A program made the position numbers and the translations under genes. From NCBI GenBank assembly GCA_965261395.1, contig OZ253462.1:3296001-3360000 (forward strand): a DNA stretch of 64,000 bases. The letters are read 5' to 3'. The DNA is from Candidatus Latescibacterota bacterium. GTDB lineage: Bacteria > Latescibacterota > UBA2968 > UBA8231. Shown in pieces: positions 2,154 through 52,018 of the stretch (positions are counted from its first letter, which is position 1; each line of letters starts with the position of its first letter). The notes beneath the pieces were generated by a model that was not told the DNA's origin, ran no database searches, and saw nothing but the letters and a program-made list of their open reading frames with translations.

Positions 2154-2232
2154 GGAGGGACTCCTCTGGGTGGATTTTCTTTTTAGGCCCTAATCAAACC
2201 ACAAACGACTAGAGAGCCAATTGAGGTGTCAA

Positions 2233-3672
2233 ATGAATGTGCTGCACATCCTCTCCGATCAGCACCAAGCGGCCTGCATGGGTTGCGAAGGCCACGCGCA
2301 GGCGCTGACGCCCAATATGGATCGGCTGGCCAGCGAGGGTATGCGCTTTTCAGCGGCGTACACCCAGAATCCGATCTGCACGCCCAGCCGCATGAGCATG
2401 TATACGGGACAGTACTGCCACAACCACGGCTTCTTTGGTCTGGGCGGGCCGCGTCCGGAGGGGATGCAGAGTTTTCTCGGCTACTTTAAGCAGCACGGGT
2501 ACAAGACGGCGGTGATCGGCAAGACGCACGTGCCCAATCAGCCGCGCGACTGGCTTTTGGACCACGTTGACTACTGGATGTCTGGCACTTCGACGCCGGT
2601 GCCGGACGCGGGCGGTCTGTCGCCGTATCAAACGTTTCTGGCCGGTGCTGGTCTTCTGGAGCAAAACGACAACTTTCGCATCACCGGCTACCCGGCCCGC
2701 CACCCGGTTGGCCTACCCCAGAACCAGTTCCGCGCTCGGCCATCGGAGCTGCCGCTGGAGTACAATGTCGAGAGCTGGTGCGTAGATCGGGCGATTGAAT
2801 TTATGGAGGGGTGCGAGGGAGACCCCTTCTGTATGCAGGTCTCGTTGCCGCGACCGCACGCGCCCTATACGCCGGATCAGAAATTCTGGGACTTGTATGC
2901 AGACGACATCGCGTTGCCAGAGACCTATTACCAAGATCCGTCGGGACGCCCGCCGCATTTCCGCGACATGCACGCGCGATTCCAGCGGGCCTGGGAGGGG
3001 GAGGAATGGTCGCCGGAGGAAGGGGCGCGCAACATTTGGCGCGGCTATCTGGGCTGCGTGACGCAGGTTGACTACTGCATTGGCCGCCTTTTGGACTACC
3101 TCGACGAACGCGGCTTGGCCGAAGATACGATCGTCGTCTATAACTCCGACCACGGCGCGTACAGCACTGCTTTTGGCATTCAGGAAAAGGCCCCTGGGAT
3201 CTGCTCGGAGGCAGTGTGTCGGGTGCCGATGCTCTGGCGGGTGCCGGGCGTTGCGGCCGAGGACAGGGTTTGCGACGCGCTGGTGGAAAATGTCGATTTG
3301 GCTCCGACATTTATGAATCTCTGTGGGTTGCCGGTGATGGAGGGCATGGATGGGGCGGATATCAGCGGGTTTTTGCAGGGTGGGACCGATCCGGTGCATG
3401 AGGTGGCGGTCACCGAGCATCGGCACAGCAAGGCGCTGCGTTGGGATAAGTGGCGCTATGTGCATTATCAACCGGAGGATTTCGGGGCCGACTGCGGCGA
3501 GCTCTACGACTTGGAGGCCGATCCGCACGAGGCCCGCAATTTGTACGGAGATCAGGCGTACCAAGAGATTGTCGAGCAGGGCGAGAAACTTCTGTGCCAC
3601 TGGCTGATCTCGACGCGGCAGTATCGCACGGCGTTTTCGGTGGGGGCGTGGAACGAGACTAATTACGTCTGA
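2233..3672 (+). CDS. sulfatase (choline-sulfatase-like family)
   Basis: MNVLHILSDQH, CTPSRMSMYTG signature, GKTH, PHAP, SDHG and ELYDL motifs. ATG at 2233 preferred over TTG at 2221. Confidence 0.92.
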   Translation: MNVLHILSDQHQAACMGCEGHAQALTPNMDRLASEGMRFSAAYTQNPICTPSRMSMYTGQYCHNHGFFGLGGPRPEGMQSFLGYFKQHGYKTAVIGKTHVPNQPRDWLLDHVDYWMSGTSTPVPDAGGLSPYQTFLAGAGLLEQNDNFRITGYPARHPVGLPQNQFRARPSELPLEYNVESWCVDRAIEFMEGCEGDPFCMQVSLPRPHAPYTPDQKFWDLYADDIALPETYYQDPSGRPPHFRDMHARFQRAWEGEEWSPEEGARNIWRGYLGCVTQVDYCIGRLLDYLDERGLAEDTIVVYNSDHGAYSTAFGIQEKAPGICSEAVCRVPMLWRVPGVAAEDRVCDALVENVDLAPTFMNLCGLPVMEGMDGADISGFLQGGTDPVHEVAVTEHRHSKALRWDKWRYVHYQPEDFGADCGELYDLEADPHEARNLYGDQAYQEIVEQGEKLLCHWLISTRQYRTAFSVGAWNETNYV

Positions 3673-4399: not shown

Positions 4400-5510
4400 G
4401 GCCTTGAATTCAACTTGTAAGTGCAATCGCTTGGGTAGCTGGCATAGAAAAGGCCAACTGGTATATTTTCCCTGGCCATTTCAAACGCAGCTCCCGACGG
4501 AGGCGCTTATGGGAACGTATCACCAGTTGACCGAGCATCAAAGATACCAAATTTACGCCCTGAAGAAAGCCGGGCATGATCAGCAGTCCATCGCGGCGAC
4601 GGTGGCGGTATCGCCCTCGACGATTTGTCGGGAGTTGCGGCGCAATCAAGGGCAACGCGGCTATCGTCCCGGCCAAGCCCATCACAAAGCGTTGGCGCGT
4701 CGTCGCCACAAGGCGAAGGCGACCAAGATGACGGCGGCGGTCATCGAGCGCATCGAAGCGGGCCTGGGTCAGCAGTGGAGTCCAGAGCAGATTGCGGGTC
4801 GGCTGGCGACGACCGACGGGTTTCGATTGAGTCCGCAGCGTATCTACCAGCACATCCAGGCGGATCGCCAGGCGGGCGGGATGTTGTATCGCCATCTGCG
4901 CCACAGTCAGAAGAAACGCAAGAAACGTTATGGAAAAGCCGATGCCCGAGGGCAGATTAAAGGCCGCATCAGCATGGACCAGCGACCGGCCATCGTGGAG
5001 GAAAAAAGTCGCATCGGCGATTGGGAAATCGACTTGGTGATGGGACGTGCACGCACCGGGGCGCTCGTCTCGGTGGTGGAACGTCGCTCGCGCTATACCG
5101 TGCTGGGCAAAGTCCCCTCCAAACAGGCCGAGCACGTAGCGGCGGCCACCATTGCGTTGCTCGCTGCCCATAAGGGGCATACCCAGACGATTACGGCCGA
5201 TAACGGCAAGGAGTTTGCCCACCATGCCACGATCAGCCAAGCGTTGGACGCGGCTGTGTATTTTGCCCATCCCTACCATGCCTGGGAGCGCGGACTCAAC
5301 GAGAACACCAACGGGCTGATTCGCCAGTATGTGCCCAAAGGGACGGCCTTGGATACGCTGTCCCAGGCGCAGGTACACCACATCATGGAGCGGCTCAATC
5401 ATCGACCGCGAAAGGGCTTGGCATTTCAAACGCCGCATGAAATCTTATGCAAGGAAACAGAAGTTCAACCCAAACATGGCGAAATTGCGCTTACGAGTTG
5501 AATCCGCGCC
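4400..5510 (+). mobile_element. IS30-family insertion sequence
   Basis: Imperfect terminal inverted repeats: left GGCCTTGAATTCAACTTGTAAGTGCAAT (from 4400); right, reverse-complemented, GGCGCGGATTCAACTCGTAAGCGCAAT (ends 5510). They enclose one transposase gene. Confidence 0.9.
4509..5501 (+). CDS. IS30-family DDE transposase
   Basis: HQLTEHQRYQI...SPSTICRELRRN HTH, WSPEQIAGR, GDWEIDLV, TADNGKEFA, WERGLNENTNGLIRQY, LNHRPRK. The stop codon lies inside the right IR. Confidence 0.96.
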   Translation: MGTYHQLTEHQRYQIYALKKAGHDQQSIAATVAVSPSTICRELRRNQGQRGYRPGQAHHKALARRRHKAKATKMTAAVIERIEAGLGQQWSPEQIAGRLATTDGFRLSPQRIYQHIQADRQAGGMLYRHLRHSQKKRKKRYGKADARGQIKGRISMDQRPAIVEEKSRIGDWEIDLVMGRARTGALVSVVERRSRYTVLGKVPSKQAEHVAAATIALLAAHKGHTQTITADNGKEFAHHATISQALDAAVYFAHPYHAWERGLNENTNGLIRQYVPKGTALDTLSQAQVHHIMERLNHRPRKGLAFQTPHEILCKETEVQPKHGEIALTS

Positions 5511-5513: not shown

Positions 5514-5542
5514 TTGATACACTCTGAACTATTGACTATAAT
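5514..5542 (+). promoter_or_regulatory. sigma70-type promoter for the 5600-23362 gene run
   Basis: TTGATA (5514-5519), 17-nt spacer, TATAAT (5537-5542); the ATG at 5600 follows 57 nt later. Confidence 0.7.
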
Positions 5543-5599: not shown

Positions 5600-8095
5600 A
5601 TGCCCTGTGGGATCTACTGGATTTGTCTACTTCTGGTCGGCGCAATATCCCGTCCTTCCCTAGCCGAGATCCAGATTTTCTCCATTCCCAAAGATATATC
5701 CTGGGAGGAGGCAGAGCAGCCTCCCCTTAGACCGGCCAAATTCTTCCATTCTATCGACTTCGAACGCATTCCGGACGGCATCATGTCGCTCGAGCCGAGC
5801 CGAGTAGCAGAGGTTCCCGATATTCCCCTCGAAGGGGACGTGTTGAGCGCTGATCAATGGGATCGCCTGTTCCGCTTTTCCCGGCATGTCGCGCAGCAGG
5901 ACGTGGTGGCCGAGCGGGCAGTGGAACTGGAAGACGGGCGGGTGATCGAGGTGGGAGAAGTCTTGTTCCCCCGCCTAGGCAACCTGCCCGGCAGCATCGA
6001 CGATGTGCGGCTTTTGCTGCGGGCTGGTGTGCGGCAGGTGCCGGTCTTGATCAACGTGGCCGAGTCCTTTCCCAAGACCGAAGTAGAGACCAAGTTCAGC
6101 AAGAATATCAACCTCATCAGTCCGAGTTTTTTCGAGTACGCTCTCACGCAGGACCAGAAAGAGGTGGAGTTCGCCGAGATATTCGACGGCAATCCGCACA
6201 CCTCTTTCGAGCGCGTGGACAAGCCCGGACAAGATATCGTCAAGAAGATGATTCTCGTAGTGGACTTGGATCGCTTCTTTCCTCTGTCCCTGATTCGCTT
6301 TTATCCCAAACCCGGGGGACTGCGGCTCTCGGCCTATACCCTCCGCTTGGGAGTTCCCGGCACGGAAAGACCCATAGCTGGCCTGGACCTCGAAGATCCG
6401 GAGAACGGCAATCCGGGCTTTCCCAAGTACATCAAGGTGGCCGATGCCCTGCCGACTTTTGTAATTGCGCAGAGTGTGCCGGTCAACCGGCAGGACACGG
6501 CGGCGGTCTTCTTTGAGCCGCCGCGTCGGCTGCGTTACTTCCGCCTAGATGTGGATACCAACCTCGACTACGACCTGGCGGAAATGGAGGCATTTGCCGA
6601 CGGCTTTATGCCCAGCGCCTCCTATGTCACCCAGGTTCTGGAGCTTCCTCGATCCACCCTAGGGCGGATTTTCTGGGAAGAGGAAAAGATAGGCGATCCA
6701 AGCCAGTCGCAGGCCGTACTCAGCTTTCAGACTGGCTTGACCGAGGAGTCCGAGGTCCTGTTCCGCAAAACCGATTTCGACGACCAGTTCGAGTGGCAGC
6801 GGCAGGAGGATGGCGGGGCCCTCGTCGTCGATCGGCGGACAGGATCCGGGACTTTTGGCCAGGAGGTCGACTTGAACGCCCTCGAATTGCGCTTAGATGC
6901 CCGCGAGATTTTCAGCGCCCTGAGCGACGAGGAACGCCTAGCCGTGCGTCTCACGCGCGAACAGTACCAAGAGTTGCCCGGCAATCAGATAAGCAAGGTA
7001 GAGCCGGCTCTGCGCTTTTGGAGCGGCTTCCAGCCGCTGGAGAGCGGAGACGCTATCAACGCTCCGAGCGGGCGGCCCTACTTCCAAGTCCGGATCGACT
7101 TTTCCAGTGAGAGTGCGCGGGCGGCTACGGCAATCCGCAACCTGCGCTTTGAATTTGAGACTCCGCTGCTGGTCCAGGAGGCCAAAGGGGAAATTGCCCC
7201 GGCCGCAGATGTAATCGCTGGCAGGGACACGCTGTTCATGTTTGCGCTACAGACGAGTCTGGCAGCGGAAAATGCGGGCTTCAACCGGCTGCATATCCGC
7301 ACTCCGGCGCGGATCCGCGCAATCGAATCGGTGAGCGTAGCGTTGGAGGACAGCCCAGTGCGAGAACTGCGGCGGATTCCGCTGGGGGATCGGCGCGAGC
7401 CGGGTGAGGACGAGTTCAAGGAAGTGGCTATAGAGGACCAGTTTTTTGCAGTGGAGTTGCCGCGGCTGCGGACCTCGGAAGACGGGCTTTCCCGAACGGC
7501 TCTCATCCGGGTGAAATTCATCGGCCGGGTGCTTGATTTCAGAACCCGGTTTCAGGCCCATGTCTTTCTCGACACGCTAGGGGCGCGCGACCGGACGGAG
7601 TTTGTCGACGGAGGAGTTGTGATCATCAATGAGAACGAAGCCGGTGCGGACACGCTGGGCTTTTTGTTGCTCCAAGAAGTTGGAGAGGGAAATGTAGTGA
7701 ATTTTGCCGCTGCCGAGTTGCTGGAGGACCGCAACTCATTGAGCGTGGTGGCCGATATCTCGGCCCAGAGCAAAAAGCTGGTGGACAATGTTGGAGTCGC
7801 TCCCAATCCGTTCACGCCCAATGGAGACGGAGTCAACGACGAAGTGGTCATCTCCTATGATATATTGCGGCTGATAAGGCCTGGTCTGGTGAGTCTGGAG
7901 GTTTTCGATTTGACTGGCTACCGCCGGCGCCTAATCGGGGAACTCCTGTTGACTTCAGGAGGCTACACCGAGACCTGGGATGGTCGAGACGAGAACGGCC
8001 AACCCGTGCCTCCTGGGATCTATTTGCTGCGTATCAGAGGAGACACGGATACCAAGGAGTCGGTCGCACTAAAACAGGTAGCGGTGGTTTATTAG
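5600..8095 (+). CDS. secreted protein with discoidin(F5/8C)-like domain and C-terminal FlgD-Ig/CHU_C-like tail (paralogue 1)
   Basis: Signal peptide ending ...SLA-E; FDGNPHTSF, VDLDRFFPLSLIRFYP, LAEMEAF; C-terminal PNPFTPNGDGVND...WDGRDENGQPVPPGIY...VAVVY. Confidence 0.75.
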   Translation: MPCGIYWICLLLVGAISRPSLAEIQIFSIPKDISWEEAEQPPLRPAKFFHSIDFERIPDGIMSLEPSRVAEVPDIPLEGDVLSADQWDRLFRFSRHVAQQDVVAERAVELEDGRVIEVGEVLFPRLGNLPGSIDDVRLLLRAGVRQVPVLINVAESFPKTEVETKFSKNINLISPSFFEYALTQDQKEVEFAEIFDGNPHTSFERVDKPGQDIVKKMILVVDLDRFFPLSLIRFYPKPGGLRLSAYTLRLGVPGTERPIAGLDLEDPENGNPGFPKYIKVADALPTFVIAQSVPVNRQDTAAVFFEPPRRLRYFRLDVDTNLDYDLAEMEAFADGFMPSASYVTQVLELPRSTLGRIFWEEEKIGDPSQSQAVLSFQTGLTEESEVLFRKTDFDDQFEWQRQEDGGALVVDRRTGSGTFGQEVDLNALELRLDAREIFSALSDEERLAVRLTREQYQELPGNQISKVEPALRFWSGFQPLESGDAINAPSGRPYFQVRIDFSSESARAATAIRNLRFEFETPLLVQEAKGEIAPAADVIAGRDTLFMFALQTSLAAENAGFNRLHIRTPARIRAIESVSVALEDSPVRELRRIPLGDRREPGEDEFKEVAIEDQFFAVELPRLRTSEDGLSRTALIRVKFIGRVLDFRTRFQAHVFLDTLGARDRTEFVDGGVVIINENEAGADTLGFLLLQEVGEGNVVNFAAAELLEDRNSLSVVADISAQSKKLVDNVGVAPNPFTPNGDGVNDEVVISYDILRLIRPGLVSLEVFDLTGYRRRLIGELLLTSGGYTETWDGRDENGQPVPPGIYLLRIRGDTDTKESVALKQVAVVY

Positions 8096-8174
8096 ACTCT
8101 TTCCATATTCGGCGATCCGCTCCGCGGGTTGAGCACGCCCGACCAGGCTATCCAACGCGGAAGGAAAAGACAAG

Positions 8175-11100
8175 ATGGAAAAGTACATCCTGTGGCTCAT
8201 TTCGAGTCTGGTTCTGGGGGGAACGCTCCATCCCCTCCTCGCCCAAGGTCAGGCGTACCGGCTTACCGATAAGGCGGTTTACGTCGACCTTCCCGCGCAC
8301 TGGCGGAACTGGGAGTACCAGAACGACCTAGTCAGCAGCCTAAAAGTGGCGGTGGATTCCACGGGGTTGTTCATCGTCGATGGCGCGGGAATTCGCCCCC
8401 GGTATTTCACCGACAAGAAAAACGCGTCTCTTGAAGCCGGTCGACTTTTTTATACAGATGTAATTCGCGCCAATGGGAAAATTGTAGCGGCTGGGGCTTC
8501 GAGTCTTTCCAACGACCGCTTGGCTGCTGGTGCTATTGATGGCCGTCTGACGACCTACTGGGAGCCGGCCACCAGCGATGTCAATCCAGAGGGACTGCGC
8601 ACGTGGGAACTCCTAGTGGATCTGGGTCAGCTAGTGGTGGTGGACAGCATCACCGTGGTCTTCCCCGGTGCCCCGGATGAGGAAGATCTCGGCGACCCGC
8701 TCAAGACCTTTGTGTTGCTGGCGTCAATGGGCGAGCCTTCGCTGAGCACGGACAGCCAGAACATCAAATTCACGCTGTTGGGCAAAGCCACGGACCGGGA
8801 CCTGCAGCCGATGGGTACCGATGGCCGCTGGCGTCAGATTACCTTCTCTGTAGAGCCTCTCGATCGGGCGGACTTTGACCTAGACGGCTTTCCAGACATG
8901 CAGAGTTCTTTCCTGCACTATGTCAAAATCAAGGCCACGGACAGCGATTATGACCGCCGGATCTCGATCGGCGAGGGAGATTCGGCTCGGGTAGTGTACG
9001 AGACCCTGCCGCCGTTCCGGCGGGGCAAGCGGATCTACCAGCGGGCGACAGCGGGTGGATTGCTGGCCGAGGTGTCCGAGGAGGTCTACCAAGGTCTATC
9101 CCCGGACCGCAAGGGGCCCATCCGCTACTTTGTGAGGGAAGTGCCCCGCGTCCAAGAGGTGCAGGTGTGGACCAAGGGAGACAATCTAGTGCGCGATCTC
9201 ACCAAGCGAGCCGGGAGTTCCTATGAGGATGGTGGGCGGGGTGCCCCTTGGTGGTCAACGGACGGTCTCTACAATACCTGGTGGACGGCCAATGTGTGGT
9301 CGGCCCTCTATGCTAGGGCGACTATGTGGATTGATCTGGGGGCGACCTTTTGGACGGACGAGATGTACGTAGTTATGAACGGCAACTACTTTATCGGACA
9401 CGAATTTCTGGCCTCGGACGGCACCCTGTTGAATCCGGTTAAAATCGAGAGCCCGGAGGACTTCCCCCAACTGGAAAACGGACTGCAGTGGGAGAATATC
9501 ATCAGCGCTGGCAAGGTGGACAACCGGACTACCCAAGTGCGGATGTTCAGCGAGGAATTCACCCGGCGCAAAGTTCGCTTCCTCCAGGTCCGGGACATCG
9601 ACATCAGTGGGCGTCAATCCGGTCGCTACGGATCTTTTGGCAACCTCGCGGAGCTACAGTTGTACGGCAGCGGATACCCCGTCAGCGTGTGGCTCTACTC
9701 CCAGCCCATCCGCCTGCAGCGCCAAGGCGAAGATCGGCAGACGACCCTGTCCAGGATTGCCTGGGAGGGTGAGGCCATCGTCCGCCGACAAGATCCGAGC
9801 GGGGCCTTCATCGAAGTGGCCGAACCCCTCGATCTGCACCCGGAGGTCAGCTTGCAAATCCAGACCCGCACCAGTGAGCAGACCGACTCGCTCTTCACCT
9901 ATTTCGAGGTAGTCGATGACGGGGCAGGAGATTTTGTTCGCACGGAAATAGACGCGGAGCGCTATGGAGATCTGGAGCTGAGTTGGCGGGTCTGGAACCA
10001 CTGGCTGAGTCTGCCTCAAAGCAAACGCCACAAGAGCAAGCAGGATGATGATGGGGACGGCCAAAAAGACGAAGATAAGATCGATTTTATCGACAACGAC
10101 GGGGACGGCCAAATCGACGAGGATGGCAAGAAGCTGCGGCGGGCTCCCCGACAAACCCCAGACAGGGCAGGCGAGTTGGCTTTTGTGGGGTGGAGTTCTT
10201 GGAGCCGGAACTACCGGCCAACTGGGGGTCGTAGAGAGGCCGTGGTCACTTCTCCCAATCCCCGCAAGTTCCTACAGATTCGGGTAAACCTTCAATCGGA
10301 AGATCCCAATGCCACCGTTCGCCTCAAAGCGCTCCGCGTGGATCTCGTCCCGCCGCTGGCCCTGAACACAGGGGCTGAACTCGCCTTGCTGACTCCTCAG
10401 GGGCTGGAGCGCCCCTTGCACGATCTGGAGTCCGAGCCGCTGGACTATCGCCCGCCCCGCCAAGTCAACCCGCTGGAATTGCAGACCTATTCGTATTTCA
10501 TCCGGGCGGCCGGGCCCGATCCGCTGCAGCCGGAGGTGCAGGAGGGATTCGACGAAATCCTCATCCTCACCAAGCAGCCAGCCGCATTGCGGGGTGTGCG
10601 TCTCGGTGAGGTTCGGGTGGTTCGGGAATCGCGGGACAGCTTGCAGACCGCAATCAGGGCCATGGAGACCCGCTTCACCGACTACTTCCAGCGGGTGCCC
10701 GGAGACAGTCTCTTCCGCAATGTCGAGGGCCAGTCTCTGCAAATGCTGGCGCGGCCGGGTTCGGATTCGCTCTACTTTCGTCTGCCCTTTTCCCTCAACA
10801 AAGACAACCGAGGGCAGACCCACGCCATTGCCGAGGTGCAGTTGGCCGTGAAAATGTACCGGGATGGGACGGAATTGCACAGTTCCATGCGCAATTCTCA
10901 GAACCCTGAAATGGACTTTCAGAAGGTCGAATTCGACGGTCAGGACGCCACTGAGCTGGTCGAACACAACGCCGTCCGGGTCAGTCTAGACCAGTCCGCC
11001 GACGAGTTGGTCCGCGTGTTGGAGGTGAACCCCTTTGTCACGCCCAACGGGGACGGCGTCAACGATCAGTTGCAGATCGAATTCGCTCTGATACAGATCC

Positions 11101-11345
11101 TGCAAGATCGTCCCATCGAAGTTGCACTATACGACTTGTCCGGCCGGCTGGTCGGCCGTGCCGTCCAGATGCAGGAGGGAAGGGTGATAGAGAGCATCGG
11201 CAAAGCAGGTGAGCTGCAGTTCACTTGGGATGGGCGCAATCCATCCGGGGCGCTGGTGCCTCCGGGAATCTACCTGTGCCGGATCCAAGTCGAAGCCGAC
11301 CAGGGCGACGAAAAGGTCGTGCTTCCCGTGCACGTGGTCTATTGA
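8175..11345 (+). CDS. secreted protein with two discoidin-like domains, DxDxDG repeats and FlgD-Ig/CHU_C-like tail (paralogue 2)
   Basis: Signal peptide; IDGRLTTYWEP, LVDLG, IDLGATFW, LAELQLYG; DDDGDGQKDED..DNDGDGQIDED; FVTPNGDGVND...WDGRNPSGALVPPGIY...VHVVY. Confidence 0.75.
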   Translation: MEKYILWLISSLVLGGTLHPLLAQGQAYRLTDKAVYVDLPAHWRNWEYQNDLVSSLKVAVDSTGLFIVDGAGIRPRYFTDKKNASLEAGRLFYTDVIRANGKIVAAGASSLSNDRLAAGAIDGRLTTYWEPATSDVNPEGLRTWELLVDLGQLVVVDSITVVFPGAPDEEDLGDPLKTFVLLASMGEPSLSTDSQNIKFTLLGKATDRDLQPMGTDGRWRQITFSVEPLDRADFDLDGFPDMQSSFLHYVKIKATDSDYDRRISIGEGDSARVVYETLPPFRRGKRIYQRATAGGLLAEVSEEVYQGLSPDRKGPIRYFVREVPRVQEVQVWTKGDNLVRDLTKRAGSSYEDGGRGAPWWSTDGLYNTWWTANVWSALYARATMWIDLGATFWTDEMYVVMNGNYFIGHEFLASDGTLLNPVKIESPEDFPQLENGLQWENIISAGKVDNRTTQVRMFSEEFTRRKVRFLQVRDIDISGRQSGRYGSFGNLAELQLYGSGYPVSVWLYSQPIRLQRQGEDRQTTLSRIAWEGEAIVRRQDPSGAFIEVAEPLDLHPEVSLQIQTRTSEQTDSLFTYFEVVDDGAGDFVRTEIDAERYGDLELSWRVWNHWLSLPQSKRHKSKQDDDGDGQKDEDKIDFIDNDGDGQIDEDGKKLRRAPRQTPDRAGELAFVGWSSWSRNYRPTGGRREAVVTSPNPRKFLQIRVNLQSEDPNATVRLKALRVDLVPPLALNTGAELALLTPQGLERPLHDLESEPLDYRPPRQVNPLELQTYSYFIRAAGPDPLQPEVQEGFDEILILTKQPAALRGVRLGEVRVVRESRDSLQTAIRAMETRFTDYFQRVPGDSLFRNVEGQSLQMLARPGSDSLYFRLPFSLNKDNRGQTHAIAEVQLAVKMYRDGTELHSSMRNSQNPEMDFQKVEFDGQDATELVEHNAVRVSLDQSADELVRVLEVNPFVTPNGDGVNDQLQIEFALIQILQDRPIEVALYDLSGRLVGRAVQMQEGRVIESIGKAGELQFTWDGRNPSGALVPPGIYLCRIQVEADQGDEKVVLPVHVVY

Positions 11346-11393
11346 GTCGAGATCTACCGAGATAATTCCACTCGAGTCTGGCAGGAGGGTGTT

Positions 11394-14135
11394 GTGCACA
11401 GACCATACGGCAGACGTTTCGTATGTTTTTTTGCCCTGTGCGTCCTACTCGCAGAGGAGCCGCTCCAAGCCCAGGAAATCGGCACCCGCCTAGGGGCGCG
11501 GCGCGGCGGCGAGATTTCCTATGAATTGCAGGGTTCGGGCGTGCTTTTTGATGCCTTGGATCCGGCGGTCAAGAAGTGGTACGTACCCCAGGAGTTATTC
11601 TACGAATTCCAGTGGCGCCAGTGGCAGTATTCCAACTACGCTCGCAGCCGCTACCTCAGGTACGTGAACACCTCGCTCGAAGGAGACTATTTCTACGATC
11701 TCTACGGCAATTTCATCACCCGCGGCAAACTCGTATACGACTGGCGCGTCTCCACTCCCCAAGTGGCCGGGAATGCCCTGTTCAAGGGCAGCGAGTTCAG
11801 ATCTTGGTTCAACAACTTGGTGATCGCCTCGGACTCAAAGGGCCAGTACTTCTACAGCCTGACCGTGGGCGACAGGATTCGCACGACGCTGACGCCCATG
11901 ACCTTTTCCAAACCCAGCTTTACTGGTATGCAGTTCGATTTCGCCAGCGACAAGTACGAGTTTACCCTCCTTGCCTCGCGTCCCAGCGCGGCCGGAGCAG
12001 TCGGCGACCTGGGGCCCTCCGGAGCCGGTGAGCGCTCCAATGATACCAATCTATTGGGAGGTCGTGGCACCATCCAGGTGGGTGACTTCGTCCGGTTGGG
12101 GACGACCTATGTCAGCGCCTTCAATGCGCAGACCAAGAACCAAGCCTTCTCGGGGAACCCGTTCAGGGGCACCTTGACCGAAGGGCAGAACAACGATGTA
12201 ACGCGCATTGAGATCCGCCTGAGTGACGACTCGCCCGAAGACGGCGATGGCGGGACGGCCTTCTTCCAAGAAGAGATCATCATCACCAATATCGACGGCA
12301 AGCGCTTCAGCAATCGCCGTCCTTTGGACGGCAATTCCATCCTCAACTTTTTCCCCACTATCCAAGGCGGCTTCCGCCAGGAAGGCTTCCTCTCGGCCGA
12401 TGGCAGCGAAGTCATAAGCCTGATATACGATCTGGAGGGTCCAGAATACCGCCAGGCCTTTGGCCCGGCTCCCGATCGGATCAAGAGCGTCGAATTCGTG
12501 CTGCTGCTGGCCAATGACTATCGCATTGACCTGACCTCCAACCGCCAAGTGAACCAGAAACGACAACCGGTGACGCTGGCCGAGGGCATTCCCGAGCGCA
12601 CAATTCGCGCCCCGGGCAATGTCCAGGACGGCTCCAACCAGCGTTTTATTTCCCTCCTGTACGGACTACCCGTAGGCAACGAAATCTTCGGCTTTACCCT
12701 CGATGTGGAAAATGCGCAGGGATTTTTCCTGGCGGGCGAATTCGCCCACAACCGGCAACACAAGCGCTATCCACGCCGGCTGGAAACGGATGTGACCGAA
12801 CACACGCCTTCTCAAGAAAGCGGGGACGCTTGGTTTCTGAATCTGTACAAACGGGCTCATCCGCTGTTCTTTTTTGCCGAAGCCTACAGCATGGATCCAA
12901 GCTACAGTACCAGCACTTTCCTGGCGGGCGTCCAGAACGATCTGGGACCGATCCTCTACGACGACAACCGCCAGTTTGTCTACGAATTTGTCGAGGACAA
13001 CGACGACCAGGACCGCTTCCCCGACTGGTTCCGCCGCGGTTTCACTCGCGACACCGAGATCTTTCCGGGCTGGGATGAGAACAGAGACTTCATCGTCGAC
13101 TTCAACCAGAATGACAATCTCCGGCGTCCCAACACCATCCCCGACTACGAAGAGCCCTTCCTGCGCTACAGTTCGGACCGGCCGGACTTTCTCTTTGGGA
13201 TCGACATGAACAACAACGGCATTGTCGATCGCTTTGAGAACGACATCCAGCCGGACTATCTCTACAAGCGGGATCGACGGGGCTACAATATCTACGTCGG
13301 TTCCAGTCTGGGGCCCGACGCCCGTCTGAGCGTGGGACGCCAGCGCGAGAGGCAATTGGCGGATGATCGGCGGAACAAAAGTACCTATCTATTGCTGACC
13401 TACGAGAAGGATTTTCCGCGGCGAGGACGGCTGCAATTCTACGACAATCTGCGCAGGATTGAGGACAATATCCGCGACAACGTGATAGAATGGGTGCTCC
13501 GGGAGGGGTCGCGAGGAGATTTCGTGCCCTTCGAAGACCCCCTGCCCGCCCGCAATGCCTGGGCCAATACTCTCTACTTGGGCTACCATTACGCCGCGGA
13601 TAACCTGCGCATTATCAACCGCTTCAAATACGAGTTCTTCCGCCAAGTGGACTTCGATGAGCGGCCTTTCAAGCAGCAGAACATCCGCGAGATGGCCAGC
13701 CTGCTGGGGATCATCAACAAAGCGGAATACACCTTTAACTTGGGCGCTCTGCGGCTGGAGCCGCGCTGGAAGAACGAGTTTTTGCGCCACCGGCCCACCC
13801 GCAAAGAAGAACAGATCCGCGTGGCTACTACCGAACTACGGGAGCTTTTGTCCCTGATAGGTCGCATTTCGATTCTATCCAGGACCACCCTGCAGGTCGG
13901 CCTGGAATACTTTTACGTCAACCAGTTCAGGGATATCCTCGAGAACGATCCGGTCCGCTCAGATCGCAATGAGCTGATCTATGCTCTCCAACTCACCAAC
14001 AACGTGGCCTACTTGGGCTACGACTTGTGGGCCCAGGCGGGTATCCACATCGCCCGGGTCGATCGGCAGGCCGCGGCCAAAGTGCAGACGGAGAGCAGCC
14101 TTTTTCTCACGCTGTACGCTGGTTTTGGGGAGTGA
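11394..14135 (+). CDS. putative outer-membrane beta-barrel protein with acidic, possibly Ca-binding insert (barrel paralogue A)
   Basis: GTG start with GGAGG RBS; signal peptide (LQA-Q); many amphipathic aromatic beta-strands; ends ...SLFLTLYAGFGE; colinear with 54225-56933. Confidence 0.65.
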   Translation: MHRPYGRRFVCFFALCVLLAEEPLQAQEIGTRLGARRGGEISYELQGSGVLFDALDPAVKKWYVPQELFYEFQWRQWQYSNYARSRYLRYVNTSLEGDYFYDLYGNFITRGKLVYDWRVSTPQVAGNALFKGSEFRSWFNNLVIASDSKGQYFYSLTVGDRIRTTLTPMTFSKPSFTGMQFDFASDKYEFTLLASRPSAAGAVGDLGPSGAGERSNDTNLLGGRGTIQVGDFVRLGTTYVSAFNAQTKNQAFSGNPFRGTLTEGQNNDVTRIEIRLSDDSPEDGDGGTAFFQEEIIITNIDGKRFSNRRPLDGNSILNFFPTIQGGFRQEGFLSADGSEVISLIYDLEGPEYRQAFGPAPDRIKSVEFVLLLANDYRIDLTSNRQVNQKRQPVTLAEGIPERTIRAPGNVQDGSNQRFISLLYGLPVGNEIFGFTLDVENAQGFFLAGEFAHNRQHKRYPRRLETDVTEHTPSQESGDAWFLNLYKRAHPLFFFAEAYSMDPSYSTSTFLAGVQNDLGPILYDDNRQFVYEFVEDNDDQDRFPDWFRRGFTRDTEIFPGWDENRDFIVDFNQNDNLRRPNTIPDYEEPFLRYSSDRPDFLFGIDMNNNGIVDRFENDIQPDYLYKRDRRGYNIYVGSSLGPDARLSVGRQRERQLADDRRNKSTYLLLTYEKDFPRRGRLQFYDNLRRIEDNIRDNVIEWVLREGSRGDFVPFEDPLPARNAWANTLYLGYHYAADNLRIINRFKYEFFRQVDFDERPFKQQNIREMASLLGIINKAEYTFNLGALRLEPRWKNEFLRHRPTRKEEQIRVATTELRELLSLIGRISILSRTTLQVGLEYFYVNQFRDILENDPVRSDRNELIYALQLTNNVAYLGYDLWAQAGIHIARVDRQAAAKVQTESSLFLTLYAGFGE

Positions 14136-14174
14136 GTTCGCTTCTCTCGGTGGAACTTGGAGGCCGTATCGATC

Positions 14175-16364
14175 ATGAGTAGACAGAAGAGCCTGCTGAT
14201 CTGGAGCGCCCTGTCCCTAGTGGGCGCAAGCGCACTGTCAGCAGAGGTCGAAAAGTGGCGAGTGGGGGACGAGATGCATCCTTGGCAACTGGTCCCGGTG
14301 AGCGGGATCACTCGGTGGGGCCGGGGCTGGGCCTTGGAAATCCTCCAAGACGGGGACGGTAGCACGTGGCTTAGTCCCGTCCGCCTAGACAGCACTTTGA
14401 ACTTGGTCGCCTTGCTTGCCGAACGGGCCCAAAGGGGTGAGTACGGTACAGATATCGCCATTGTCCCCAGCGAGGCGGGAGTCCGCATAGAAGTGGCCGA
14501 CCCCTTCAATACCACGGCCTATGGGGGGACCAAAAAAAACAGGGCCAAGATGGCCGACGGCGATCTGTTCACTGCCTACGGTCTCACCACCCGAGACGCC
14601 AATGCTCGCTTCGACCTCCGCTTTCAGGGCTACTACTACATCCAGCGGATCGTTTTCCAGCCGCGCCCCAGCGTGCCAGAGGCCACCATGCGGGATTACT
14701 GGGTGCGCTACGGGAATGCCGCGCACATCAACAACAACAGGCTGAGTGTCTATCCCTTTGTGATCCCTCCCCAAGTCGGCCAGCAAATACCCGTAATCAA
14801 GGATATATCTCTGGATCAACCACTGCTGATGGGGATGGTGGACATTCTCTCCCGACATCCACCCGGCGAGTACTGGGAGATCGCCGAGGTGGAAATTTAC
14901 GGAGATGGGTATCCCACGGATGGTTTCTATGCTTCGGAGATAATCGACTTGGGGGTGAATCCACCCGGCGTGCGGCGCTATACCCAGCAGTGGGATCGTT
15001 ACAAGCTAGAAGACCGGACAGAAGTAGAGAGCCAGTTCCCCGACCAGGAGGGCAATTCGGTCACCTGGGGAAAGGTGCGCTGGAAAGCCCGTCGCCTGGG
15101 GGAGGAAGGGGACGTGCGCATTCAGTTTCGCGCCGGAAATTCCTTGGACACCCATATTTACCAGCGGCGAGTGGGGAAGGATGTGGTCGATATGCGGGAC
15201 GAAAACGGCCGTACCCTGGACGCGTTCGGTTGGGCGAATCTCAACTCGCTGATGCGGGTGCCAGAGCACAACCTACCCTACAACGAGTTGGGTGCCCCAC
15301 TGGGGGCCGATGGTCCCAAAGGCTGGAGTTTCTGGTCGGCGTCGCTCCGCTACGAGGATGGCTTGGTTGATCAGACGCGGCCGGCAGAGGAGAGCGGCAT
15401 CCTCCTGCCCTTGCCCAGTCAGACCCGCTATCTGCAATTTCGCATCTTCTTCGACAGTTTGCAGCACAGCGCGGTGCTCTTCGACTACCTCGAATTCGAA
15501 TACGATGTCCCCATAGTGGGCCACGGAGTCCGCGGCGAAATCTTTCCTCCCCAGGCGTCCTTAGGTGAGGAGACCACGTTCCGCTATTTTCTCAAACCCT
15601 TCTTTGACCCAAACGACCACAGGGGCTTCAACCGCATTGAGATCGCCGTGCCCAGCCGGGACACTAGGATTCAGACGCTCAAGGTGGACGACCAGCCCTG
15701 GGTAGAGATACCAGTGGCGGCCACAGAGGGGGTAGAGCCGCAACGGCTGCCGCCAGAGCCCGGCGGACTCGATTCACTGGGGCAGTTCACCCAGACCATG
15801 GTCCTAGGCAGCTCCAGCAAGCTGTTGGTCGAGCTGCCGCCCCTCGACGTGGCCGATTTTCCGCCGGGACAGGAGCGGAATATTGAGATCGTCTTCACCT
15901 CAACCCTCTTCAATGGCTCGTGGCAGTTCACCAGCGCGGTGTGGAACGACGCCGAAAAGGGCATCCCCCAGCCCACGGAACCCGGGGATGCCAGTCCCGA
16001 ATTGAGTACGGACGTATTCACCGTAGTGGCAGAAAATTTAGGGAACCTCATCAATCGGCCCCTTGTGGAACCCAATCCCTTTACACCCAACGGCGACGGA
16101 ATTAACGACGAAGCCCTAATCTCCGTTGACCTCTTTCTGATTTCCGAGCCCATAGAACTCACCGTTGATCTGTACGACTTGTCGGGGCGTCGGGTGCGCA
16201 GCCTGGGACACGGGCGGCACGGGGCTGGTGTGGTCGAGTTGCGCTGGGACGGTCGGGACGACAGGGGGGGGATACTGCCCCCCGGAATTTACCTATATCG
16301 CGTAAGAGCGGATGCGGACGACAAACTCAAAAGGCAGACCGGGATCTTGGCCATGCTCTATTGA
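14175..16364 (+). CDS. secreted discoidin-like + FlgD-Ig/CHU_C-tail protein (paralogue 3)
   Basis: Signal peptide (ALS-A); ADGDLFTAY, EIAEVEIYGDGY, WGKVRW, WSFWS; PNPFTPNGDGIND...WDGRDDRGGILPPGIY...LAMLY. Start may be TTG at 14157. Confidence 0.75.
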   Translation: MSRQKSLLIWSALSLVGASALSAEVEKWRVGDEMHPWQLVPVSGITRWGRGWALEILQDGDGSTWLSPVRLDSTLNLVALLAERAQRGEYGTDIAIVPSEAGVRIEVADPFNTTAYGGTKKNRAKMADGDLFTAYGLTTRDANARFDLRFQGYYYIQRIVFQPRPSVPEATMRDYWVRYGNAAHINNNRLSVYPFVIPPQVGQQIPVIKDISLDQPLLMGMVDILSRHPPGEYWEIAEVEIYGDGYPTDGFYASEIIDLGVNPPGVRRYTQQWDRYKLEDRTEVESQFPDQEGNSVTWGKVRWKARRLGEEGDVRIQFRAGNSLDTHIYQRRVGKDVVDMRDENGRTLDAFGWANLNSLMRVPEHNLPYNELGAPLGADGPKGWSFWSASLRYEDGLVDQTRPAEESGILLPLPSQTRYLQFRIFFDSLQHSAVLFDYLEFEYDVPIVGHGVRGEIFPPQASLGEETTFRYFLKPFFDPNDHRGFNRIEIAVPSRDTRIQTLKVDDQPWVEIPVAATEGVEPQRLPPEPGGLDSLGQFTQTMVLGSSSKLLVELPPLDVADFPPGQERNIEIVFTSTLFNGSWQFTSAVWNDAEKGIPQPTEPGDASPELSTDVFTVVAENLGNLINRPLVEPNPFTPNGDGINDEALISVDLFLISEPIELTVDLYDLSGRRVRSLGHGRHGAGVVELRWDGRDDRGGILPPGIYLYRVRADADDKLKRQTGILAMLY

Positions 16365-16407
16365 GATACTCCCGGGCGCGCTCAAACCCTGAATAGGATA
16401 ATCTGGT

Positions 16408-17190
16408 ATGCATAGAGTACACTGCGTCCTTTTGCTGGCACTGGGGTCAATCGGCTTGACCGCGAGTTGTGCCTATCACTACTATGCCGGCAATCTGCGG
16501 CCGATGGACGAAGCAGTTCAGGGCGAGAGCAGAAGGGTCACGGACGACGGCTCTGTCATTTTCACCGCGGGACGGCTAGAAATCCAATTGCGCCCCATGA
16601 ACGACGAGGAATTGAACCGCCAGTTCAGTGTGGCTACAGAGCAGGGGACCAACCCCTATACCTACGGCCAGACAAAGATCTTCAGGACCAACCGGACTCC
16701 CAGCCGCTTTACGGTCTTCCGGTTGAGCGCGAAGAATTACGCCTATCCCAAAGTCCACATAGACCCCACTAGCCTCTACATTGAGACCGACAACGGCCGC
16801 AAGTACGCCGCGCTTAGTTTTGCCCAGCTCAAAATTTACTACCGGAGCTTTTCCCTCGGGGGGTCGGGTGGTGGAGCAGGGAATAGCGGGGATAGAAGTC
16901 GGGGTATGCGTCGGGGCGGGGAGTATCAAACCTGGCAGGAGCGCCAGGGCATCCTCAGGCGCACCTTGTTCGCCGACGAGATGATCTTCAGTGGCCAAGA
17001 GCGCGAAGGATATGTCGTCTTCAAAACTCTGGCTCCTGATGTCGCCAAGCTGACCGTCCACATTCCCGATATTACCGTGCGCTTCGATTTTAGGGACCAA
17101 CCCATTGAGACGCTTGATGTCACCTCCCGATTTGAGCGAGACATCGGACGGGAGTACCCGGACGGGCGTATTGAGTTGGCTCGGAAATAG
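16408..17190 (+). CDS. hypothetical lipoprotein
   Basis: Lipobox-like LTASC after a hydrophobic stretch; Gly-rich loop GGSGGGAGNSG; co-directional within the operon. Confidence 0.7.
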   Translation: MHRVHCVLLLALGSIGLTASCAYHYYAGNLRPMDEAVQGESRRVTDDGSVIFTAGRLEIQLRPMNDEELNRQFSVATEQGTNPYTYGQTKIFRTNRTPSRFTVFRLSAKNYAYPKVHIDPTSLYIETDNGRKYAALSFAQLKIYYRSFSLGGSGGGAGNSGDRSRGMRRGGEYQTWQERQGILRRTLFADEMIFSGQEREGYVVFKTLAPDVAKLTVHIPDITVRFDFRDQPIETLDVTSRFERDIGREYPDGRIELARK

Positions 17191-17243
17191 GGAAACCGGA
17201 TGAGTGGGAGTCTGCTGCCGTGAATTGCCGTGGAGAACGACGC

Positions 17244-18752
17244 ATGTCGCCTTGCTGGGCTTGGTTGCTGGCCGCAGTGGGCCTATCTCTGCTCGGGAAT
17301 TGCAGTCCGCAGCCACAGACCGTAGCGGACCTGCCGCTGGTACAGGTCGGCGATGAGGTGATCACCGCAGAGGTATTGCGGCAGTACGAACGGGATCTAC
17401 CCACGGCCTTTCGTGCAGCCGCCTCTGGAGCGGCGGCTCAGCGCGAGCACCTCCAGAGCCTAGTGGACCGTCAGCTGATGCTGCTCGAAGCCGGAAACAG
17501 GGGGTACAGGAGCATGCCGGAGCTGAAAGCGGAACTGGAGCAACTCGCCAATAAAAAACTGATTGACCAAGTTACAGCCGAATATATCACCCGACGGGTC
17601 GAGGTGGCCGAAGAAGAACTGCTCCAGGAGTACCAAGAGGCCGACCTGGGCTGGATGGTTCGGCCCGCCCGCATTCTCTGCGCGACCGAGGAAGAGGCCC
17701 GAAAAATCGTCCGTGAACTGGAGCAGGGAGCGGATTTCGCCGCGTTGGCAGCGGCTCGCTCGCTAAAGGGCGCGACGGAAAAGGGCGGAGACTTGGGGCA
17801 CTTCTTCGGCCCGGAGGACGTGGCCCCAGTGCTGCAGAAGGTGATCTTCGATCTGCCTGTGGGGGGCATCAGCGCGCCCATCCGCACAGTAGAGGGGTAC
17901 GAAGTGCTGACGATTCTCGATCGCTATAGAATCCCCTTCGACCGGCTAAAGGAGCGATTGGCCACGAACGTGCGCCGGCGCAAATGGGCAGCCCGGCACC
18001 TCGAGTACCTCGAGGAACTCAAGAGGACGGATAGTTTGTCTCAAATTGTTGCTAGCGATCCCAAGGCCCTGTCTGATACCCTGCTGCTGAGAGAGGCTCG
18101 CCGACAAGGATTCGATTTGAACGCCGAGTTTTTGGCCTGGCAGGAAGCCAAATGCGAAGAATTGCTGATCAGACAACTGCGTCGGCGAGAAGTGATTGAT
18201 CTGCTTCCTCCTCCTCCCGAGGCGGAAGTGCGGCAGCACTACGAGGCGCATATAGATGGGTACAGCGTACCTGGAACGGTCTACTTGACCGAGATCCTGC
18301 TCAATACTCGGGAGGAAGCTATGGAGATCCGCCAGGCCGCGGAAGCGGGACAAAGCCTAGAGGATCTGGCTCGAAAGCACTCGGTGCGTCCGAGGACTGA
18401 GGACGGACACGGGCATGTCCACGCCGGTCGAGATGGACATGTGGTCCTTTATGCCCTCCAGAGTTCGCCCTATTACAGACTATTCCAGCGCCAAGAGAGA
18501 CAGCAAGTCGGGCAAATCCAAGGGCCGGTGGAACTGGACGGCAAGTTTGCCGTATTCAGGCTGGACGAGCCCATTGAACCGCATCGGATCCCCTTTGCAA
18601 AGGTGCGGAAGCACGTCCGTCGTCGAGTCAAGTTGCAGCATGCGAAGCGGGCTTTTGAAGTCTATATCGACTCATTGCGCACGGTCTACGCCGGGGAGGT
18701 CAAGTGGTTCGACGAGCATCTGGCTGGGCTGAACGCTGGTAATACGCGATGA
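17244..18752 (+). CDS. PpiC/parvulin-type peptidyl-prolyl isomerase lipoprotein (SurA/PrsA-like)
   Basis: Lipobox LGNC; ILCATEEEA...GADFAALAAARS...KGGDLG..F parvulin motif; a second degenerate parvulin domain (EILLNTREEA...LEDLARKHS). Confidence 0.85.
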   Translation: MSPCWAWLLAAVGLSLLGNCSPQPQTVADLPLVQVGDEVITAEVLRQYERDLPTAFRAAASGAAAQREHLQSLVDRQLMLLEAGNRGYRSMPELKAELEQLANKKLIDQVTAEYITRRVEVAEEELLQEYQEADLGWMVRPARILCATEEEARKIVRELEQGADFAALAAARSLKGATEKGGDLGHFFGPEDVAPVLQKVIFDLPVGGISAPIRTVEGYEVLTILDRYRIPFDRLKERLATNVRRRKWAARHLEYLEELKRTDSLSQIVASDPKALSDTLLLREARRQGFDLNAEFLAWQEAKCEELLIRQLRRREVIDLLPPPPEAEVRQHYEAHIDGYSVPGTVYLTEILLNTREEAMEIRQAAEAGQSLEDLARKHSVRPRTEDGHGHVHAGRDGHVVLYALQSSPYYRLFQRQERQQVGQIQGPVELDGKFAVFRLDEPIEPHRIPFAKVRKHVRRRVKLQHAKRAFEVYIDSLRTVYAGEVKWFDEHLAGLNAGNTR

Positions 18753-20206
18753 AGCCGAACGTCGTCCAACCAGTGATCAAGGGCGCCAGGTACTTCCTCG
18801 CGCATGCTCCCGGATTGGTGCGTTATGGTTCCAAACCTCGCCGCGAACTCCTGAAAACCCCGGAGCTTTGGGACCAAATTGCCCTGCATCTCCGCTCGTA
18901 TTCGGAAGCCGCGGCCTATGCACCCAACCAGGTCTTTCTGGGGCAGTTTGCGCCCGACGAACTCGCCACCCGCGAGCGGCCTTGGTTCGAGGGGAACAGT
19001 CCTTGGCAGCCGCGCTATCCCCACGGCGAGATCATGCCGGAAGAGACCCTCTATGGGCTCCTCAAGATAGCCGATGCGTTCGACTTGGTCTGGCTGGAAG
19101 AGAAATTTGCCGGGGAAGTTAGAGAAGCCCTAGCCGGCCACAGCTTGGTCCACAACTCCGAATTGGAGCGGCTCGGCGACGGTCAGCCCTATGCGGCAAT
19201 CGAGACTAGCGTGGCCGATCTGGAAGCAGCGCTGCCGCTCTTGCTCAAAAATGGGCGTCTGGTCGGATGCATACATCGCGCCCACGAAGAAGATGCCACG
19301 CTGGCAGCGGACGTGTTGCTCGAAAACCTGACGTGCAAAATAACGGCTGCTATGGCGCTGAGGACGCTGTTGAGCGATACCCAACTCGATCCGGCCGCGG
19401 TTGACTATATTATCAATAGCGGTGAGGAAGCCGTCGGGGAACGCTACCAGCGAGGGGGAGGGAATCTGGCCAAAGCCGTCGGAGAGATGTGCGGTCTGAG
19501 CAATGCGACCGGATCCGACGTCAAGGCCTTTTGCTGCGGGCCGGCGCACGCCTTGGTGATGGCCGGGGCGTTGGTGAGTTCAGGCGTGTTCGATGAAGTC
19601 GTCGTAGTCGGCGGATCCTCCCTGGCCAAGCTAGGGATGAAGTTCCAAGGCCATCTGCGCTGCGACTACCCCATCATAGAGGATGTGTTGGCTGCGGTAG
19701 CAGTACTGGTGGGCCCGGACGACGGCCTCAGTCCGGTGTTGCGGCTGGACTCGATAGGGCGGCACAGTGTCGGGGCTGGTTCTTCCCAGCAGGCCGTCTT
19801 TGAGGAACTGGTCTCCCGACCTCTGGCCAGACTGGGCTTGAGCTTCAGGGACGTGGATAAGTACGCTACCGAGTTGCACAATCCAGAGGCCACAGAGCCT
19901 GCGGGCAGCGGTGATGTTCCCAGGAGGAATTACCAAATGATTGCCGCCTTGGCGGTCCTCAACAAAGAGATTGACCGGTCGGAAATGCCGGCTTTCATCC
20001 AGACGTACGGGATGCCCGGTTTTTCGCCCACCCAAGGGCATATTGCCTCCGGCATTCCCTACTTGGGCCATGCGCTGGATCGCATGAGAGATGGCACGAT
20101 GCAAAGGGCCATGTTCCTCGCCAAGGGCAGCCTGTTCCTAGGCCGAATGACGCAGATGTCCGATGGCATGTCTTTTATCGTTGAAAATAACCCCAACAGG
20201 AGTTGA
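18749..20206 (+). CDS. grdC: glycine/sarcosine/betaine reductase component C, beta subunit
   Basis: PVIKGARYFLAHAP, GEIMPE, EEAVGERYQRGGGNLAKA, DVKAFCCGP, KLGM, ELHNPE, GFSPTQGHIASG, KGSLFLGRMT. Start overlaps the previous stop (ATGA). Confidence 0.93.
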   Translation: MKPNVVQPVIKGARYFLAHAPGLVRYGSKPRRELLKTPELWDQIALHLRSYSEAAAYAPNQVFLGQFAPDELATRERPWFEGNSPWQPRYPHGEIMPEETLYGLLKIADAFDLVWLEEKFAGEVREALAGHSLVHNSELERLGDGQPYAAIETSVADLEAALPLLLKNGRLVGCIHRAHEEDATLAADVLLENLTCKITAAMALRTLLSDTQLDPAAVDYIINSGEEAVGERYQRGGGNLAKAVGEMCGLSNATGSDVKAFCCGPAHALVMAGALVSSGVFDEVVVVGGSSLAKLGMKFQGHLRCDYPIIEDVLAAVAVLVGPDDGLSPVLRLDSIGRHSVGAGSSQQAVFEELVSRPLARLGLSFRDVDKYATELHNPEATEPAGSGDVPRRNYQMIAALAVLNKEIDRSEMPAFIQTYGMPGFSPTQGHIASGIPYLGHALDRMRDGTMQRAMFLAKGSLFLGRMTQMSDGMSFIVENNPNRS

Positions 20207-47049: not shown

Positions 47050-47096
47050 GAAATTTTTCTGTTCAAAGTGGGCGACCAAGGGAAGGGGGCAACGAA

Positions 47097-52011: not shown

Positions 52012-52018
52012 GGGGAGG

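Follow-up and report, generated by a model that had tools for sequence, protein, structure and literature searches.

Type IX secretion system (T9SS) biology is, to our knowledge, known almost solely from Bacteroidota. Two examples of its surface cargo are SprB of Flavobacterium johnsoniae, which is paired with SprF, and PG1035 of Porphyromonas gingivalis, which is paired with PorP; in both cases a multidomain surface protein with a CHU_C tail is encoded beside the gene of an outer-membrane barrel. The PorP/SprF barrels are about 300-400 amino acids (aa) long. According to two papers, type B cargo binds and needs the neighbouring PorP/SprF-like barrel (PMC9143113; PMC12618676), and a third describes SlpA of Deinococcus radiodurans as a 30-stranded barrel (PMC9388160). 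The present analysis concerns a gene module found twice in a window of 64,000 nucleotides (the whole stretch of DNA that was analysed, with a G+C content of about 60%) from a Candidatus Latescibacterota bacterium (NCBI GenBank assembly GCA_965261395.1, contig OZ253462.1, positions 3,296,001 to 3,360,000 of the forward strand). One giant barrel (B), three tailed secreted paralogues (A) and a parvulin lipoprotein (P) make up a module, and the letters C and T are used throughout for its accessory genes. The module is real, strongly conserved and uncharacterised, and it probably belongs among the systems of T9SS cargo. The explanation that we prefer, with a probability of about one half, is that the A proteins are T9SS cargo held on their cognate barrel in the way of SprB and SprF, but on an unrelated barrel.

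In the first region (5600-18752) six genes follow each other on the + strand with gaps of 22-80 bp: A1 (5600-8095, 831 aa), A2 (8175-11345, 1056 aa), B1 (11394-14135, 913 aa), A3 (14157-16364, 735 aa), C1 (16408-17190, 260 aa) and P1 (17220-18752, 510 aa). The second region (47097-64000) begins with the divergent genes A4 (47097-49295, - strand) and A5 (49141-52011, +), whose longest open reading frames (ORFs) overlap at their 5' ends; signal-peptide-like starts at 49226 for A4 and 49348 for A5 are the likely ones. Then come T1 (52019-54220, -), B2 (54225-56933, -, 902 aa), C2 (57021-57968, -, 315 aa), T2 (58103-59845, -), P2 (59894-61558, +, 554 aa) and A6 (61574-64000, +), which runs off the end of the window and has its tail outside it. 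The ORFs of both regions were confirmed where an earlier note, made from the sequence alone, had placed them. That note had read the two regions as the same gene set, which is right for B, the three A genes and P; the sets as a whole are not identical, since the second region adds T1, T2 and C2 and the first adds C1. The DNA between the regions encodes housekeeping enzymes.

The recurrence of the module was followed by a genome scan with 16 closer barrel sequences, in which 348 relatives were confirmed and the best 80 loci were kept with a flank of up to 10 kb. Their ORFs were searched with the window proteins by phmmer (E<1e-5), and those loci that are at least 20 kb long, 57 in number, are referred to as full. 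The 80 loci come from metagenome-assembled genomes (MAGs) labelled Latescibacterota, Gemmatimonadota and Handelsmanbacteria; the barrel of locus L001, from a Latescibacterota MAG, is 96% identical to B1, which makes the source of the window a close relative of that MAG, and barrel homologues at a greater distance come from Marinimicrobia- and Bacteroidetes-labelled MAGs. In 78 of the 80 loci, B has one or more tailed A genes within 10 kb, a recurrence that lifts the module far beyond chance and bears out the synteny in other genomes on which the earlier note had made its proposal depend. The composition is mostly fixed, at odds with the freely variable subunits proposed there: the full loci contain two (7 loci), three (40), four (9) or five (1) A genes, and 37 of the 57 have exactly one A gene of a long type and two of a short type. 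P is present in 51 of the full loci, C1 or C2 in 46 (C2 in 40, C1 in 9), T in 39 and an FG-GAP/ASPIC gene in 24, and two or three barrel genes are found in 18. The constancy of the A genes points to a defined hetero-complex.

At least seven modules, accounting for seven of the best 80 loci, are carried by a single 7.3-Mb genome (OZ244561.1), to which L001 belongs. The barrel tree contains about 8-10 deep clades, each spanning several genomes; B2 groups with the barrels of L069, L073 and L075, and tandem barrels fall into two distinct clades. Similarity matrices for 40 loci, those that have a single B, a single long A and a single P gene, are strongly correlated (Mantel r 0.98 for B and the long A, 0.92 for B and P; none of 2000 permutations reached these values), which indicates that modules duplicate and diverge as units. 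Flanking genes were considered as a further constant part of the module and rejected, the top neighbours beyond the module genes being DUF6785/DUF6784 membrane proteins (18 of 80 loci), spermine-synthase-like proteins (14), GDSL lipases (11) and LRR proteins (8).

The two ~900-aa proteins, which had been taken for colinear paralogues, align by BLASTP over their full length (residues 8-912 of B1 with 4-901 of B2) at 46% identity in 931 columns. Neither has a match in Pfam or NCBIfam, nor in the Protein Data Bank (PDB) by sequence or profile. An AlphaFold2 model of B1 based on a 45-sequence alignment is almost all beta (pLDDT 77.4, pTM 0.77), with about 28 long strands in the part that starts at residue 107 and extends to the C-terminal end. 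Comparison of this model with the PDB by Foldseek gave 170 matches at E<=0.001, and each of the 46 that were listed is an outer-membrane barrel protein or a complex that includes such a protein. The top matches are, in order, SlpA (8ae1_A, E 1.1e-8), MtrB, the SlpA-containing SDBC complex, FimD and LptD, after which come TonB-dependent receptors and porins. TM-scores among the top hits are 0.35 or less (0.26 for SlpA, 0.18-0.21 for FimD and about 0.2 for FimD and LptD taken together), so that no solved structure is close. B1 does model as a large outer-membrane beta-barrel, of an unnamed family, in keeping with what had been expected of it. At least 823 homologues were collected in one search, or 745 representatives at 50% clustering, and every name given to them by their sources is 'hypothetical protein'. 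The nearest named Atlas cluster (score 0.89) is DUF6029, a lead that Pfam did not support and that was not retained.

Two segments of the barrel protein are strongly conserved in the family. One is N-terminal (residues ~45-104) and poorly modelled, and the other is an acidic insert (residues ~533-625, at 12990-13268 on the + strand) with three Asp/Asn-rich loops, in which D535, D537, D561, D569, D604, N608, D612 and E615 are invariant in the 45 homologues; its consensus was drawn over 106 sequences. The loops resemble three calcium-binding loops of the EF-hand type and may bind calcium. By a parity count of the strands from the C-terminus in the DSSP string of the model, the insert would be on the extracellular side. 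Dockerin, EF-hand and TSP3 families were tried for the insert of B1 and dropped, as none matched in Pfam even at E<=10.

Through the common tail of its A proteins the system can probably be assigned to a known pathway of secretion; the earlier note had been unable to assign it to any named system. The last ~100 residues of A1-A5 match the Pfam family CHU_C (PF13585), 'Type IX secretion signal domain'. In four of the five complete paralogues the match is above the cut-off of 27 bits (A1 32.3, at residues 735-819; A2 29.1; A3 30.6; A4 39.1), whereas A5, with 24.7, stays below it. For FlgD_ig, three of the five exceed the cut-off (A2 27.8, A3 39.5 and A5 29.3 bits). Relatives of A3 carry precomputed CHU_C and FlgD_ig assignments, and some are named 'gliding motility-associated C-terminal domain-containing protein' by their sources. 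Over the 80 loci the tail is present on 209 of 218 A-family ORFs. Beside one module type, in L048 (3895-4503, - strand) and also in L041, L051 and L053, there is a small 202-aa protein made up almost wholly of a type A tail (Por_Secre_tail 31.2 bits, cut-off 27). Type A tails are thus present in Latescibacterota genomes too, which suggests that T9SS cargo exists in the phylum. Another paper lists Gemmatimonadetes among the FCB (Fibrobacteres-Chlorobi-Bacteroidetes) phyla that possibly have a T9SS (PMC11285876).

Among the A proteins, 14 of 15 pairs align by BLASTP with 25-37% identity (E 2e-4 to 8e-48), and the remaining pair, A1-A6, gave no match at E<=1e-3. Clustering separates a long type with a discoidin-like N-terminal region (A2 and A6; 70 sequences in the cluster) from a short type (A1, A3, A4 and A5, all homologous to one another). 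The N-terminal 500 residues of A2 are homologous to A6, and A6 is homologous to A2 over residues 142-612. Read by eye, the N-termini of A1-A6 show a hydrophobic stretch followed by an A-x-A-like site, that is, a putative Sec signal peptide. The earlier note had described a shared scaffold of eight motifs. As literal patterns, seven of these are found in A4 and in A5, five in A3, four in A6, three in A1 and two in A2, against none or one in each of 10 other window proteins, and the consensus of a 47-sequence A-family alignment recovers a colinear scaffold. The scaffold thus stands as an approximate one; '(I/Q)TR(T/S)G' occurs literally in none of the paralogues, its real form, read from the translations, being RTR(S/T)G.

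The model of A3 (pLDDT 89.2, pTM 0.83) has fold matches at the level of single domains, namely CBM32 (2v72, TMt 0.65), Fn3/Ig-like domains and the PorU tail, and no match over its full length (TMq 0.16 or less). The S-layer protein 7ptp is among the matches with a TM-score of 0.13. The A3 family profile finds the CBM32 protein 7jnb (E 2.8e-9) and FlgD Ig-like domains (E 1.3e-9), and F5_F8_type_C reaches 25.5 bits in A2, below the cut-off of 28.2, and 33.0 in long-type relatives in L033 and L062. A3 thus models as a chain of CBM32/discoidin and Ig-like beta-sandwich domains of a sugar-binding type, closed by the T9SS-type tail, an architecture ascribed here to the tailed proteins in general, and the discoidin folds that the earlier note had ascribed to the secreted paralogues are supported. 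An internal duplication among the four domains of A3 was considered and rejected (hhalign probabilities of 0.5% or less). Sequence, profile and fold searches gave no full-length match to a characterised complex, as had been expected.

Compared with PorP/SprF-type loci, the module shares the arrangement of CHU_C-tailed multidomain surface proteins beside an outer-membrane barrel gene, and its cargo and barrel likewise diversify together as cognate sets. It differs in the barrel itself, which with ~900 aa (902-913) and ~28 strands is outside the PorP_SprF family; that family was unmatched in B1 and B2, in the 45 barrel homologues and in 108 unassigned ORFs inside or beside the modules. The pairing of one cargo with one barrel is replaced here by three cargo genes, in two size classes, with one or two barrels, and the module further includes genes for parvulin, GT-C/TPR and CBM9-like proteins. 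The hosts are MAGs of Latescibacterota, Gemmatimonadota and Marinimicrobia and not of Bacteroidota.

Several observations weigh against the explanation that we prefer. B has no similarity to PorP/SprF, and the contact between A and B is something that we infer. Shared inheritance contributes to the Mantel correlation as well, which is no demonstration of binding, and loci with two barrels have no more A genes than others. In NCBIfam, the A tail scores at best 25.9 bits for the type B model TIGR04131 (cut-off 35) and 17 for the type A model TIGR04183 (cut-off 23). The tail of A3 is modelled as a sandwich of about seven strands. Type B sorting domains are predicted as a four-strand sheet (PMC12618676), and the tail is in this respect closer to the solved type A domains. 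It is therefore called a T9SS-type tail of uncertain subtype, unlike type B cargo both in its TIGR04131 score and in its modelled strands. Type A behaviour of the tail would allow the cargo to be attached to lipopolysaccharide without any need for B. Finally, no T9SS core component was found among the ORFs scanned in the window and the flanks (~10 kb on each side of the modules), the whole host genome not having been searched; a lone GldK row in the flank scans, with 84.9 bits against a cut-off of 350, belongs to a protein that scores higher for PvdO.

An uptake system like SusC/SusD, in which A and C2 would capture glycans and B would be an oligosaccharide channel gated by its N-terminal segment or its acidic insert, appears unlikely to us. 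Like SusC/SusD loci, the module occurs in many paralogous copies per genome (at least seven in OZ244561.1), as is the case for polysaccharide utilisation loci, and it combines surface proteins bearing CBM32- and CBM9-type domains with a large barrel whose invariant insert would face outwards by the strand count given above. However, the families of the TonB plug, the TonB-dependent receptor barrel and SusD were unmatched in the window proteins, the 45 barrel homologues and the 108 module-adjacent ORFs, and by membership the likeness to SusC/SusD that the earlier note had considered is lost. The binding proteins carry T9SS tails and are not lipoproteins, there are no regular glycoside hydrolases or regulators, the core module has no inner-membrane transporter, and an ungated barrel of ~28 strands would leak. 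Carbohydrate-related genes, occasionally carbohydrate-active ones, do flank the module in the window and in L009, L025, L031, L035, L036, L044, L052, L062, L071 and L079; sulfatases, sugar-acid dehydratases, GH5/GH42-like enzymes and parts of ABC sugar transporters are among the flank genes. Such genes are inconsistent among the flanks, and other flanks are plain housekeeping.

The fold matches of B give rise to two further alternatives. MtrB, LptD and FimD, which rank from second to fifth among them, each function together with a protein that sits inside the barrel or moves through it, and B might be an usher-like or LptD-like translocon acting independently of a T9SS, with P as its periplasmic chaperone and the A tail as the signal that it recognises. 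We regard this as improbable. B is encoded beside its presumed substrates, 51 of the 57 full loci have a gene for a dedicated chaperone of the SurA/PrsA kind, and a T9SS in the host organism is putative; a literature search found no paper linking Latescibacteria or Latescibacterota with type IX secretion, and the searched passages of the 2015 Latescibacteria genome paper make no mention of the Por secretion system (PorSS). Yet the tail matches T9SS sorting-domain families, the type A tail protein of L048 suggests T9SS cargo in the phylum, and TM-scores to MtrB, LptD and FimD are 0.17-0.35 (only ~0.2 for FimD and LptD). There is no match at the family level in sequence either: usher and PapD families were unmatched in the window proteins and the 45 barrel homologues, the usher family also in the 108 module-adjacent ORFs, and the LptD family in B1, B2 and the 45 homologues. 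The module has no cytochrome, LptE-like or pilin genes, and neither an energy source nor a plug domain was recognised. That B is an abundant scaffold barrel like SlpA/OmpM, on which the A proteins form a surface layer, is very unlikely, even though Deinococcus SlpA is its best fold match and 7ptp appears among those of A3. SlpA_C is matched weakly by six of the 45 barrel homologues (best E 7.6e-5) and is precomputed in 11 of 120 distant ones, but B1 and B2 are without SlpA_C, an SLH domain or a coiled-coil family in Pfam and NCBIfam and have no coiled-coil stalk; the TM-scores (0.26 to SlpA, 0.13 for 7ptp) are low. B also differs from SlpA/OmpM in its invariant acidic insert and its place in many paralogous operons with T9SS-tailed proteins, and seven or more diverged modules in one genome are ill-suited to a single layer.

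Retention of T9SS cargo on a cognate giant barrel, the explanation that we prefer, would proceed as follows. The A proteins, one long and two short with CBM32/discoidin-type domains, would enter the periplasm via Sec and be routed by their T9SS-type tail to a T9SS encoded elsewhere, which would carry them over the outer membrane. They would then be retained at the surface on one or two giant barrels of the same operon. The parvulin lipoprotein P would act in the periplasm as chaperone of the barrel, the cargo or both. Periplasmic glycosylation of the beta-sandwich cargo may be the task of the PMT_2/TPR enzymes T, and the CBM9-like C2 might add a further binding part. Ligands, which would most likely be glycans bound for capture or for adhesion, may differ between module types; the combination of CBM32- and CBM9-type domains with many ancient paralogous modules per genome suggests such differing glycan ligands. 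The earlier note's general picture of lectin-like subunits that dock on a barrel is reasonable, the docking itself being conjectural. A bolder proposal, which we consider doubtful, is that B is the founder of a new class of giant barrels whose invariant calcium-binding extracellular insert docks a fixed triad of lectin-like proteins exported by the T9SS. The modules would then be substrate-specific machines for capture and entry, the counterpart of SusCD in FCB phyla without SusCD, with about ten ancient types that would each handle a different polymer.

Among the accessory proteins, P1 and P2 (25% identity over 549 columns, E 1e-24, BLASTP) both contain PpiC-type domains above the Pfam cut-offs (Rotamase 67 and Rotamase_2 72.1 bits in P1, 46.5 and 43.3 in P2), which confirms that these lipoprotein-like proteins are of the parvulin kind, as described earlier. 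The nearest solved relatives of P1 are PrsA, SurA and PpiC, and P2 has a weak SurA_N_3 match; the cut-offs of the full-length SurA and PrsA equivalogs in NCBIfam were not reached by either protein. T1 and T2 are predicted membrane glycosyltransferases of the GT-C type, with PMT_2 above the cut-off of 26.1 (36.8 and 38.7 bits) followed by C-terminal TPR repeats. Such PMT_2/TPR enzymes resemble the eukaryotic TMTC enzymes, and the TMTC_DUF1736 match of T2 (24.5 bits) is below the cut-off of 27. Next to the second module, the TPR protein T3 (45373-47217, -) has an N-terminus like the SurA-like one of P2 (residues 54-147 of T3 and 6-104 of P2, 32% identity over 99 residues, E 1e-5), and ORFs matching both P and TPR queries were seen in several related loci.

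C1 is a predicted lipoprotein with a lipobox-like LTASC, noted by eye, and has no family match in Pfam or NCBIfam. It is specific to the B1-type module: relatives are found in 14 of the 80 loci, 3' of the barrel gene in L001-L011 and L017. C2 is a secreted CBM9-like protein in which CBM9_1 scores 21.8 bits (below the cut-off of 23.4) and whose nearest Atlas clusters carry CBM9_1 on 13-94% of their members. Remote homology of C1 and C2 was considered and rejected (hhalign probability 2.6%). In B1-type loci a CBM9-like gene often lies upstream of the first A gene (L006, L010, L011), a place where it is missing in the window. Two FG-GAP/ASPIC (UnbV) genes, 41813-43447 (+) and 43466-45376 (-), represent a frequent accessory neighbour (FG-GAP_3 146 bits, together with UnbV_ASPIC). 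A large membrane protein with DUF6785 and DUF6784, found beside the module in the 18 loci mentioned above (for instance L033 14466-16481, L073 159-2111, L038, L047, L049, L071 and L072), may be an inner-membrane partner or merely a frequent neighbour. In modules of the order A A B A B, an LRR protein gene lies directly 3' of the second barrel gene (L021, L025 12643-14520, L029, L042, L050) as a clade-specific accessory.

Upstream of the first module, a promoter-like site, TTGATA-17-TATAAT, lies at 5514-5542 on the + strand, 58 bp before A1, and agrees with the sigma-70 consensus, which may not hold in this phylum, at 11 of 12 positions. The site is inside the stretch that is still identical to locus L001; the window and L001 are identical from ~90 bp upstream of A1 onwards, and what lies before that point is unrelated. 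Exactly where the match stops there is an IS30-type transposase gene (4404-5501, +) with HTH_38 and rve domains. Two sulfatase genes (522-2153, -, and 2221-3672, +) and a gene for a formylglycine-generating enzyme (FGE-sulfatase, 41046-41816) fit a putative lifestyle of sulfated-polysaccharide degradation. Downstream of P1, a gene for a GrdB/GrdF/GrdH-type reductase, 'selenoprotein B' (20704-22039, +), shows apparent readthrough of an in-frame TGA at codon 351; with the TGA read as selenocysteine the frame is open for 445 residues, and in the equivalent gene of L001 the TIGR01918 match stops at profile position 345 of 431. Genes of the same reductase pathway adjoin it on both sides, at 18749-20206 (reductase complex C subunit beta, 644 bits) and 22043-23362 (Gly_reductase).

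If our preferred explanation of T9SS cargo on a giant cognate barrel is true, the module would show how FCB phyla other than Bacteroidota hold such cargo at the surface. Its barrel of ~28 strands, which falls into no functional class known so far and comes from a family for which Pfam and NCBIfam have no model, is also a testable case. Latescibacterota and Gemmatimonadota are regarded as polysaccharide degraders of sediments, soils and waters. The size of the barrel family and the many copies per genome make the module probably a major feature of the cell envelope in MAGs labelled Latescibacterota and Gemmatimonadota.

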